DNA from: Corallococcus coralloides
GTDB lineage: Bacteria; Myxococcota; Myxococcia; Myxococcales; Myxococcaceae
Reading direction: 5' to 3'
Assembly (NCBI GenBank): GCA_013116665.1
Contig: JABFJY010000032.1
Coordinates: 1-53,109 of the forward strand
DNA length: 53,109 nucleotides
Part shown: positions 48,644 to 48,930 of the stretch, piece after piece
Numbering within the stretch: position 1 is the stretch's first letter
Layout: each line of letters starts with the position of its first letter
Position numbers and translations under genes: made by a program
The notes under the pieces: generated by a model
What the model saw: the letters and a program-made list of their open reading frames with translations, nothing else
What the model was told of the DNA's origin: nothing
The model's database searches: none

Positions 48644-48874
48644 ATGAAGGCATCGCGACTGAAGCAGACGATTCCTGGATTCGCGCTGATCATCGGCATC
48701 ATGGCGGGCACGGCGCTGGCCATGGTTCCCGGCTCGACGGCGGAGACGACCGAGAATCAGACGTCCGCTGTCCAGATGATCTGTTCGGCCAGCTGCAAGC
48801 CGTGCTCGAGCCAGTATGACTGTGGCTCGCGTGAGGGTTCCTGCGGGGTCTGGCGCTGCACCAACCCGATGTAG
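48644..48874 (+). CDS. Small secreted Cys-rich peptide (75 aa, 6 Cys in the C-terminal 30 aa)
   Basis: SD ggaggaaacATG. Signal peptide MKASRLKQTIPGFALIIGIMAGTALAMV. C-terminus ICSASCKPCSSQYDCGSREGSCGVWRCTNPM. Followed by a terminator hairpin. Confidence 0.6.
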   Translation: MKASRLKQTIPGFALIIGIMAGTALAMVPGSTAETTENQTSAVQMICSASCKPCSSQYDCGSREGSCGVWRCTNPM

Positions 48875-48898
48875 ACACCTGAAGGAAGCGTCCCCATC

Positions 48899-48930
48899 AG
48901 CCTCCGAGTCCCAGGGCTCGGAGGCTTTCC
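48899..48930 (+). terminator. Rho-independent-type terminator: AGCCTCCGAG - tcccaggg - CTCGGAGGCT then TTCC
   Basis: Perfect 10-bp stem and 8-nt loop, 25 nt after the stop of the small peptide gene. Confidence 0.55.

Follow-up and report, generated by a model that had tools for sequence, protein, structure and literature searches.

Gene organization of the locus

A small gene for a secreted-type cysteine-rich peptide lies near one end of a 53,109 bp stretch of Corallococcus coralloides DNA (contig JABFJY010000032.1, positions 1-53,109, assembly GCA_013116665.1), the whole of which is referred to here as the window. The gene is read on the forward strand and lies, as originally predicted, between a divergently oriented gene for a bacterial homologue of the eukaryotic major vault protein (MVP) and the gene for a lipoprotein with a C-terminal DUF6310 domain, which is a putative toxin. 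The gene that follows the lipoprotein gene encodes a DUF5953 protein with weak similarity to Imm52, so the two are a plausible toxin-immunity pair. The peptide locus itself reads as a self-contained transcription unit, made up of a promoter-like block, a Shine-Dalgarno sequence, an open reading frame (ORF) of 76 codons and a hairpin. The coordinates of all these features are given in Table 1.

Table 1. Features of the peptide locus and of the genes on either side
Feature	Coordinates	Strand	Basis or remark
Promoter-like block TTGGAA-N17-TCGAAT	48558-48586	+	Conserved in Corallococcus orthologues; promoter assignment putative
GC-rich imperfect palindrome, probable 5' untranslated region	48600-48619	+	Conserved in orthologues; contains GCTCCGG
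Shine-Dalgarno sequence GGAGGA	48635-48640	+	Sequence; 3 nt (AAC) ahead of the ATG
Peptide coding sequence, 76-aa precursor	48644-48874 (TAG 48872-48874 included)	+	Translation; ATG start
Signal peptide, residues 1-26, MKASRLKQTIPGFALIIGIMAGTALA	48644-48721	+	Sec-type; predicted signal peptidase I cleavage after A-L-A, rule-based
Linker or possible pro-region, residues 27-45, Pro/Ala/Ser/Thr/Glu-rich	48722-48778	+	Variable; AlphaFold2 pLDDT <50
Six-cysteine core, residues 46-76, ICSASCKPCSSQYDCGSREGSCGVWRCTNPM	48779-48871	+	Six Cys and G65 invariant; AlphaFold2 pLDDT ~79-88
Terminator-like hairpin	48899-48926	+	RNA fold; stem of 12-13 bp, 4-nt loop, short T tail
MVP gene	46133-48400	-	755 aa; Vault repeat domains and MVP shoulder
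DUF6310 lipoprotein gene, putative toxin	48946-49875	+	C-terminal DUF6310 domain
DUF6310/DUF5953 cassette	48946-50633	+	Presence/absence insertion

The original prediction described an ORF of 75 residues with a signal peptide and six cysteines. The ORF stands, but translation gives a product of 76 residues (MKASRLKQTIPGFALIIGIMAGTALAMVPGSTAETTENQTSAVQMICSASCKPCSSQYDCGSREGSCGVWRCTNPM). The GC content of the ORF is 0.47, 0.58 and 0.83 at codon positions 1, 2 and 3, respectively, and the periodicity at the third position (GC3) sets in at the ATG at 48644 with the same pattern as in bona fide neighbouring genes. The peptide is 100% identical to the NCBI hypothetical protein D7W82_12405 of Corallococcus sp. 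CA049B. A six-frame translation of the window contains the exact six-cysteine framework a single time, and 100 shuffles do not produce it at all. Cysteine-dense stretches are nonetheless frequent in the off-frames of this GC-rich window, where 14 were counted, so it is conservation, and not cysteine density, that provides the real argument for a gene. Loss of the frame or of the cysteine spacing in relatives had been named as the finding that would tell against the peptide; both are kept in all 32 clusters of homologues described below.

Three other ORFs in the same interval were rejected. A longer in-frame ORF starting from an ATG at 48452 (140 aa) shows no GC3 periodicity upstream of 48644, and all homologues begin instead at the methionine of MK(A/P)SRLK. 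An overlapping ORF (48337-48819) and an antisense ORF (48458-48967, reverse strand) do not have coding-type GC3. We regard it as virtually certain that 48644-48874 is a real, stand-alone gene.

Conservation of the expression signals

The peptide gene was thought to be expressed independently, and the sequences that flank it support this. Promoter-like block, Shine-Dalgarno sequence and hairpin all stay with the gene, also in the different context that it occupies in C. praedator (locus L002). There the gene neighbourhood is wholly different and TTGG...N17...TCGAAT is still kept; the block is also kept where an extra gene stops ~90 nt upstream. This conservation across contexts suggests that the promoter belongs to the peptide gene. 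A strict sigma-70 consensus scan did not call the block at 48558-48586. The Shine-Dalgarno sequence is as predicted, and GGAGG is found at an equal distance from the ATG in nearly all orthologues. RNAalifold pairs the GCTCCGG of the upstream palindrome with CCGGAGG of the Shine-Dalgarno region, but the pairs are invariant and so provide zero covariation support. This pairing could sequester the ribosome-binding site, or the palindrome could be an operator; both suggestions are unsupported at present.

The gene was said to be followed immediately by a terminator with a perfect 10-bp stem. The stem is there, and extends to 12 bp (approximately -25 to -29 kcal/mol in context), but the hairpin begins 24 nt past the stop codon. 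It is followed in the window only by TTT (3-4 T overall), which is why a consensus terminator scan made no call. The hairpin is present in all 12 orthologues compared, with 93.6% of cells paired and compensatory changes at three pairs (A-U to U-A, A-U to G-C and A-U to C-G). By comparison, one shuffle in 500 reaches the observed values and slid registers are 28-49% paired. Distant family members also have a hairpin past the stop codon. In C. macrosporus (L008) the hairpin sits between convergent genes and could serve both. A search of 48300-49000 against Rfam gave no family match.

Architecture of the precursor and evidence for export

The precursor has three parts, a signal, a linker and a cysteine core, and this architecture is common to all members of the family. 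The signal peptide that had been predicted is recovered by rule-based analysis: the N-terminus of the window precursor has an n-region with a charge of +3, a hydrophobic stretch (GFALIIGIMAGTALA) and A-L-A at positions -3 to -1. Across the 32 family members the n-region carries +1 to +4 and the hydrophobic region is of the GFALIIGIMAG type, while position -3 is A, T or S and position -1 is A, S or G at the same aligned position in every case. This is the pattern of a Sec signal cleaved by signal peptidase I. Other export signals were looked for in the same region. There is no lipobox ([LVI][ASTVI][GAS]C), the first cysteine being residue 47 and the signal ending in T-A-L-A-M, and there is no twin-arginine motif in the precursor sequence. 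The signal is not type IV pilin-like either; the invariant G12 is followed by F, L, I or M, but position +5 is I, L, V, F, M or G and never Glu, and N-methylation-site models in Pfam and NCBIfam gave no match at E values up to 0.1-1. Taken together, these features make it very likely that the peptide is exported.

The linker is variable. It measures 15-38 aa in different family members, even orthologues differ by indels, and it is predicted to be disordered (AlphaFold2 predicted local distance difference test score, pLDDT, below 50). The core comprises 27-31 residues in the family. In the window its cysteines are at residues 47, 51, 54, 60, 67 and 72, which gives C-x3-C-x2-C-x5-C-x6-C-x4-C; the six-cysteine pattern originally described is thus correct except in the third gap, which is five residues rather than six. 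The AlphaFold2 model of the core (pLDDT 79-88) is compact; its secondary structure consists of short strands or bridges and no more than one short helix. A net core charge of -3 to +2 across the family speaks for specific binding and against membrane lysis of the typical cationic kind. In most members a basic residue stands 2-5 positions ahead of the first cysteine.

The N-terminal region could alternatively be an uncleaved signal anchor. The product would then be a bitopic inner-membrane protein whose helix packs through GxxxG with itself or with a partner, and the cysteine knob would be tethered in the periplasm, where it might for example modulate a membrane sensor or transporter. Consistent with this, G12, A14, L15, G18, G22 and L25 are invariant in the family alignment, even between members that are ~30-40% identical overall, the synonymous substitution rate (dS) is 0.32 in the signal region compared with 0.60-0.65 in the core, and a disordered linker of variable length is tether-like. 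However, the A-x-A-type residues at -3 and -1, found in 32 of 32 members, are needed by a cleaved signal and not by an anchor. The uninterrupted hydrophobic stretch is only ~15-19 residues long and includes three glycines, there is no conserved membrane-protein neighbour at the loci examined, and conserved signal peptides are normal in young families of secreted peptides. We consider the anchored form improbable, and a cleaved Sec signal remains our preferred assignment.

The cysteines raise a further alternative, namely that the product is modified in the cytoplasm as a ribosomally synthesized and post-translationally modified peptide (RiPP) of the SCIFF, ranthipeptide or sactipeptide-like kind, or binds a metal or an Fe-S cluster through C-x3-C-x2-C. 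Six cysteines do fall within 26 C-terminal residues, C-x3-C-x2-C is also the cluster motif of radical-SAM enzymes, and a leader might be seen in the conserved N-terminal region. Against this, the N-terminus is a hydrophobic Sec-type signal and not a RiPP leader, and chains pass through Sec unfolded, so that a cofactor could not already be in place. Additionally, no conserved gene for a radical-SAM enzyme, a peptidase or an ABC exporter is found near any of the 26 loci compared (see below), and there is no match in Pfam or NCBIfam. This makes cytoplasmic modification or metal binding barely credible.

A peptide family restricted to the Myxococcaceae

A word-indexed search of 5.8 billion proteins returned 14 close homologues, and with the distant matches from an exhaustive profile search of 1.84 billion representatives added the total is 32 clusters at 90% identity. 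At 50% identity, the exhaustive search contains seven true family representatives. Two further matches from this search (P0018 and P0022) were found on inspection to be spurious repeat or low-complexity proteins and were discarded. There were no domain fusions among the profile-search matches. The framework C-x3-C-x2-C-x(4-6)-C-x6-C-x4-C is at the very C-terminus in 32 of the 32 members.

The named sources are Corallococcus species, Myxococcus sp., Pyxidicoccus and a metagenome-assembled genome of the Myxococcaceae, together with one record titled Comamonas sp. KCTC 72670 (L006, BNCN01000002.1). The last is the only title from outside the Myxococcaceae, and it may be a mislabel.

Searches for known relatives were negative. 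The full precursor has no match in Pfam or NCBIfam, and 24 isolated cores searched against Pfam at E values up to 10 gave only a meaningless zinc-finger match in three members. A profile search of the PDB sequences at E values up to 10 found no match, nor did fold searches with the AlphaFold2 model. Homology and structure prediction had been suggested as a check for knottin- or defensin-like folds; a compact cysteine core is predicted, but neither a family nor a fold match to knottins or defensins was obtained from these searches. The family is uncharacterised and Myxococcaceae-restricted, and its cysteine framework is undescribed.

Sequence evolution of the family

In ten orthologous coding sequences the overall ratio of non-synonymous to synonymous substitution rates (dN/dS) is ~0.42, and the ratio for one pair is 1.12. 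The linker has a dN/dS of 0.56. When the core codons are divided, the scaffold has a dN of 0 against a dS of 0.60 and the loops have a dN/dS of 0.73, a contrast that is partly circular because the scaffold codons were picked after the alignment had been viewed. The plentiful silent changes at the scaffold codons are still informative. Between species the peptide is 76-91% identical, compared with 98% for the adjacent MVP, and paralogues are present within single genomes. The combination of fast loops, a fixed scaffold, paralogues and a rapidly changing peptide beside a slow MVP is suggestive of arms-race-like evolution.

Relationship with the DUF6310/DUF5953 cassette

We compared 26 loci, of which 18 are orthologous (the window, L001-L014 and L020-L022) and eight are paralogous. 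The original prediction implied a link between the peptide and the toxin locus, and proposed that their co-occurrence be checked in other genomes. The distribution of the cassette is against such a link, and in other genomes the peptide is mostly found without the toxin pair. The cassette is intact in only four of the 18 orthologous loci (the window, L003, L007 and L022). In one (L004) the toxin domain is mostly deleted, in frame, and in another (L001) the immunity gene is present alone. The remaining 12 (L002, L005, L006, L008-L014, L020 and L021) have no cassette, and neither do any of the eight paralogue loci. The downstream neighbour in the orthologous loci without a cassette is the RdgC-side gene, QRPTase/ValRS, an aminotransferase gene or unrelated genes.

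The gap between the peptide and toxin genes is 71 nt and includes the conserved hairpin, and the cassette has a hairpin of its own after the immunity gene. The GC content dips to 52% at 49550-49850. The patchy distribution indicates that the cassette has been inserted behind the hairpin of the peptide gene in some strains. Since the toxin ATG is only 20 nt past the hairpin (7 nt in L003), the cassette is probably transcribed there by read-through from the peptide promoter. For the immunity gene, the probable start codon is the ATG at 49872 rather than the one at 49770; this start, which is the one called in L007 and L022, gives an ATGA overlap and a product of 253 aa. A literature search on DUF6310 and DUF5953 found nothing.

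The order of the genes recalls the system of the SitA outer-membrane-exchange toxins, in which the accessory gene sitB lies upstream of sitA, overlaps it by 11 bp and encodes a protein with a type I signal sequence and a predicted outer-membrane beta-barrel (PMC5562445). The peptide could by analogy be an accessory or co-effector of the neighbouring lipoprotein toxin, acting as a helper in the manner of SitB or as a second component of the toxin. Like sitB, the peptide gene directly precedes a lipoprotein toxin gene of the same orientation and specifies a predicted type I signal sequence, and the short distance from hairpin to toxin ATG leaves no room for a separate promoter and makes read-through likely. 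Unlike SitB, the mature peptide would have no more than 50 aa, and a hairpin separates the two genes in place of an overlap. The absence of DUF6310 and DUF5953 genes from 12 of the 18 orthologous and all eight paralogous loci also speaks against an accessory role, as does the retention of the peptide beside an orphan immunity gene at one locus and a domain-deleted toxin at another. The accessory reading is highly improbable and is largely refuted by the gene distribution. The data show that the peptide is independent of the toxin cassette, and their adjacency is very probably an accident of insertion.

The MVP gene and other neighbours

The divergent MVP gene is the neighbour in 15 of the 18 orthologous loci, in several Corallococcus species. 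This might reflect a functional tie, such as co-regulation from the shared 243-bp intergenic region. The adjacency is confined to one genus, however, and fits inherited synteny. L002, L005, L006 and all the paralogues have no MVP gene within 5-10 kb, and roughly half of the loci have a further gene, or what is left of one, between MVP and the peptide gene. Eukaryotic vaults are cytoplasmic and no signal peptide was noted on inspection of the MVP sequence, whereas the peptide is predicted to be exported. MVP also evolves far more slowly. A functional tie is very improbable on these grounds. A literature search on MVP in myxobacteria found nothing.

In several strains a gene for a cysteine-rich lipoprotein of 237-249 aa with no Pfam match is found between the MVP and peptide genes (5195-5908 in L007). 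Only a 71-aa C-terminal remnant of it is left in C. exiguus strains (5692-5907 in L009), and it is absent from the window (equivalent position ~48401-48560). The interval between the MVP and RdgC genes in Corallococcus appears to be an insertion hotspot where cassettes come and go.

In C. praedator (L002, 3198-17236) the peptide gene is within repeated cassettes, the proteins of which start MPVNTGVN(R/K)MSVVTKDSGGVT. These N-termini may be those of PAAR-like or DUF4150-type toxins. This is another variable, putatively toxin-rich region, unrelated to the DUF6310 cassette.

The eight paralogue loci have no neighbour in common and are in unrelated contexts. Large proteins encoded upstream of three paralogues were considered as a conserved partner and rejected, as they are mutually non-homologous. 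Beside one paralogue there is a gene for a 77-aa lipoprotein with four cysteines (L019, 6344-6577). Another paralogue, in C. exercitus, has a gene for a secreted subtilisin-like Peptidase_S8 protein 318 nt downstream of it (L024, 5543-6850). Both associations are isolated and neither is conserved.

Further from the peptide gene in the window, 43313-44905 (reverse strand) encodes a protein with LysM and a type VI secretion system VgrG3-like C-terminal domain, which is probably a peptidoglycan hydrolase. Divergent from it, 45084-46136 (forward strand) encodes a 350-aa protein with no Pfam match and an N-terminus that looks hydrophobic by eye. Synteny of the two genes is kept in several Corallococcus genomes.

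Comparison with known peptides

The family belongs to a known kind, the secreted disulfide-rich peptides of bacteria, with a framework that is new. Its closest described relatives in kind are the myxobacterial cis-defensins (corallosins and xanthusin-1), part of a set of 74 published bacterial defensins in five classes (PMC11561630). In both, the precursors are small (30-100 aa) and come from Corallococcus or Myxococcus, and many of the published cis-defensins are from Corallococcus. The precursors begin with a Sec-type signal peptide, in many cases carry an acidic tail without structure at the N-terminus, and end in a core with three disulfides, which are predicted in our case. The genes of both stand alone, with no export or immunity gene dedicated to them. 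Both also have a G-x-C gamma-core-like motif, here G65-S-C67-x4-C72, which is invariant in the family but is short and non-specific when taken alone. The cysteine-stabilized alpha-beta signature of cis-defensins, a helical C-x3-C bonded to C-x-C in a strand with a further cysteine ahead of them, is not found in our peptide, as it has no C-x-C and no cysteine before C-x3-C. Moreover, the C-x3-C stretch is non-helical in both AlphaFold2 models, which have neither a cysteine-stabilized alpha-beta fold nor a fold match. The strings SCKPC, CGVWRC and ALAMVP are not in the supplementary tables of the defensin study, and the corallosin sequences given there are unrelated (PMC11561630).

The peptide also has features in common with canonical protease inhibitors and knottins: a length of ~30 aa, six cysteines, probably three disulfides, loops that vary on a rigid scaffold, and a short inter-cysteine loop with a basic residue. 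It has no Pfam, PDB or fold match to them. Its loop lengths of 3, 2, 5, 6 and 4 seem to lie outside the usual ranges of the inhibitor cystine knot, a fold with I-IV, II-V and III-VI connectivity, the second being too short and the fourth too long. A likeness of another sort is to animal toxin and antimicrobial peptide families such as the conotoxins, which show the same combination of a conserved signal, a variable pro-region or linker, fixed cysteines, fast loops and paralogues in one genome. It concerns the mode of evolution only and implies no sequence relationship, the present family being bacterial.

The original prediction had placed the product among bacteriocins, signalling peptides or disulfide-rich toxins and inhibitors. 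A gene for a small, very probably exported, cysteine-rich peptide is what we find, but the architecture is not that of a classical bacteriocin or RiPP. A class II bacteriocin would be expected to have a double-glycine leader, or else a Sec signal with an immunity gene, a dedicated ABC transporter or both next to it; there is no GG-type leader here, and no conserved immunity or transporter gene at the 26 loci. A radical-SAM RiPP, whose precursor gene would adjoin one for a radical-SAM/SPASM maturase, is likewise not indicated, as the N-terminus is of Sec type and there is no radical-SAM gene in any of the 26 neighbourhoods.

Possible role of the peptide

We propose the following model. Residues 1-26 would act as a Sec signal peptide and be cut by signal peptidase I after Ala-Leu-Ala (Ala26). 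The ~50 remaining residues would reach the periplasm, where the six core cysteines would be oxidised, presumably by the Dsb system, to three disulfides, and the oxidised core of ~30 aa would form a compact, protease-resistant knot. The disordered acidic linker might be kept as a tail or be trimmed, and the basic residue before the first cysteine could mark a processing site. Once out of the cytoplasm, the peptide would bind a specific target with its fast-evolving loops, and would not disrupt membranes. The most likely use in a predatory bacterium would be as a defensin-like effector or a toxin-like binder directed against other organisms. No dedicated maturase, transporter or immunity gene would be required. 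On balance, we think it somewhat probable that this is a self-contained gene for an exported disulfide-rich mini-protein that most likely binds its target in antagonism or defence. The antagonistic or defensive effector role in particular is the more tentative part of the model, being the leading candidate but by itself somewhat less likely than not.

Several points weigh against this model. The gene, its conservation and its architecture are known from sequence, but cleavage, the disulfides, the final location and the biological role are things that we infer, as is any activity. There is no relative in fold or sequence, so the proposed function has no anchor. Sec alone delivers a protein only to the periplasm in a diderm, and from there no way through the outer membrane is apparent. 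G12 and G18xxxG22 in the hydrophobic segment are conserved beyond the usual requirements of a disposable signal, which gives some weight to a membrane-anchored form. The partial circularity of the contrast between scaffold and loops belongs here as well. Termination at the hairpin is probably incomplete, given the three T residues that follow it and the toxin gene 20 nt further on. Finally, xanthusin-1, the only myxobacterial cysteine-rich peptide to have been tested, proved to lack antimicrobial activity (PMC11561630), and analogy is therefore no basis for assuming such a role here. A literature search on the myxobacterial secretome and predation found nothing specific to this peptide family.

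The periplasmic end-point of Sec export bears on a different role, that of an inhibitor for self-protection. The peptide would block a hydrolase such as a protease or cell-wall enzyme, either the cell's own or one injected by a competitor, in the periplasm or in outer membrane vesicles, and would do so with a rigid disulfide-braced loop like that of small canonical protease inhibitors. Export by Sec alone stops at the periplasm of a diderm, a near-neutral core is not that of a lytic peptide, and an invariant scaffold with variable loops fits such a role. In addition, myxobacteria secrete many lytic enzymes. The residue between the second and third cysteines is K or R in most members and A in one subgroup (SCKPC compared with SCADC), which we presume to resemble the P1 variation of inhibitor families and offer as a lead only. 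One paralogue is, as noted above, upstream of a subtilisin-like protease gene. However, this protease neighbour occurs at a single paralogue locus sampled in two genomes (L024 and L025), and there is no conserved enzyme partner among the loci examined. K-P is an atypical scissile bond, and no inhibitor family was matched in the Pfam, PDB and fold searches. We consider an inhibitor rather unlikely, and continue to favour the exported target binder.

A bolder version of the favoured model is speculative and on the whole unlikely to hold in full. The family would be a new class of disulfide-knotted effector peptides found only in the Myxococcaceae, with a new cysteine framework, possibly a new fold, and loops shaped by an arms race. 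Its members would be target-specific antimicrobial or anti-eukaryotic agents, or inhibitors of the lytic enzymes of competitors. Such a class would be a bacterial counterpart of the venom and defensin gene families of animals, and would be distinct from the reported cis-defensins.

In annotation, the peptide gene should be separated from the adjacent toxin-immunity cassette. The small ribosomal secreted peptides of myxobacteria have barely been explored, although the group is prolific in predation and in antimicrobials. If the peptides are active, the family would be easy to express and to engineer, having a fixed three-disulfide scaffold and no maturation or export partners. It would then be a source of new antimicrobial or inhibitor scaffolds, and would provide a bacterial model of arms-race peptide evolution.

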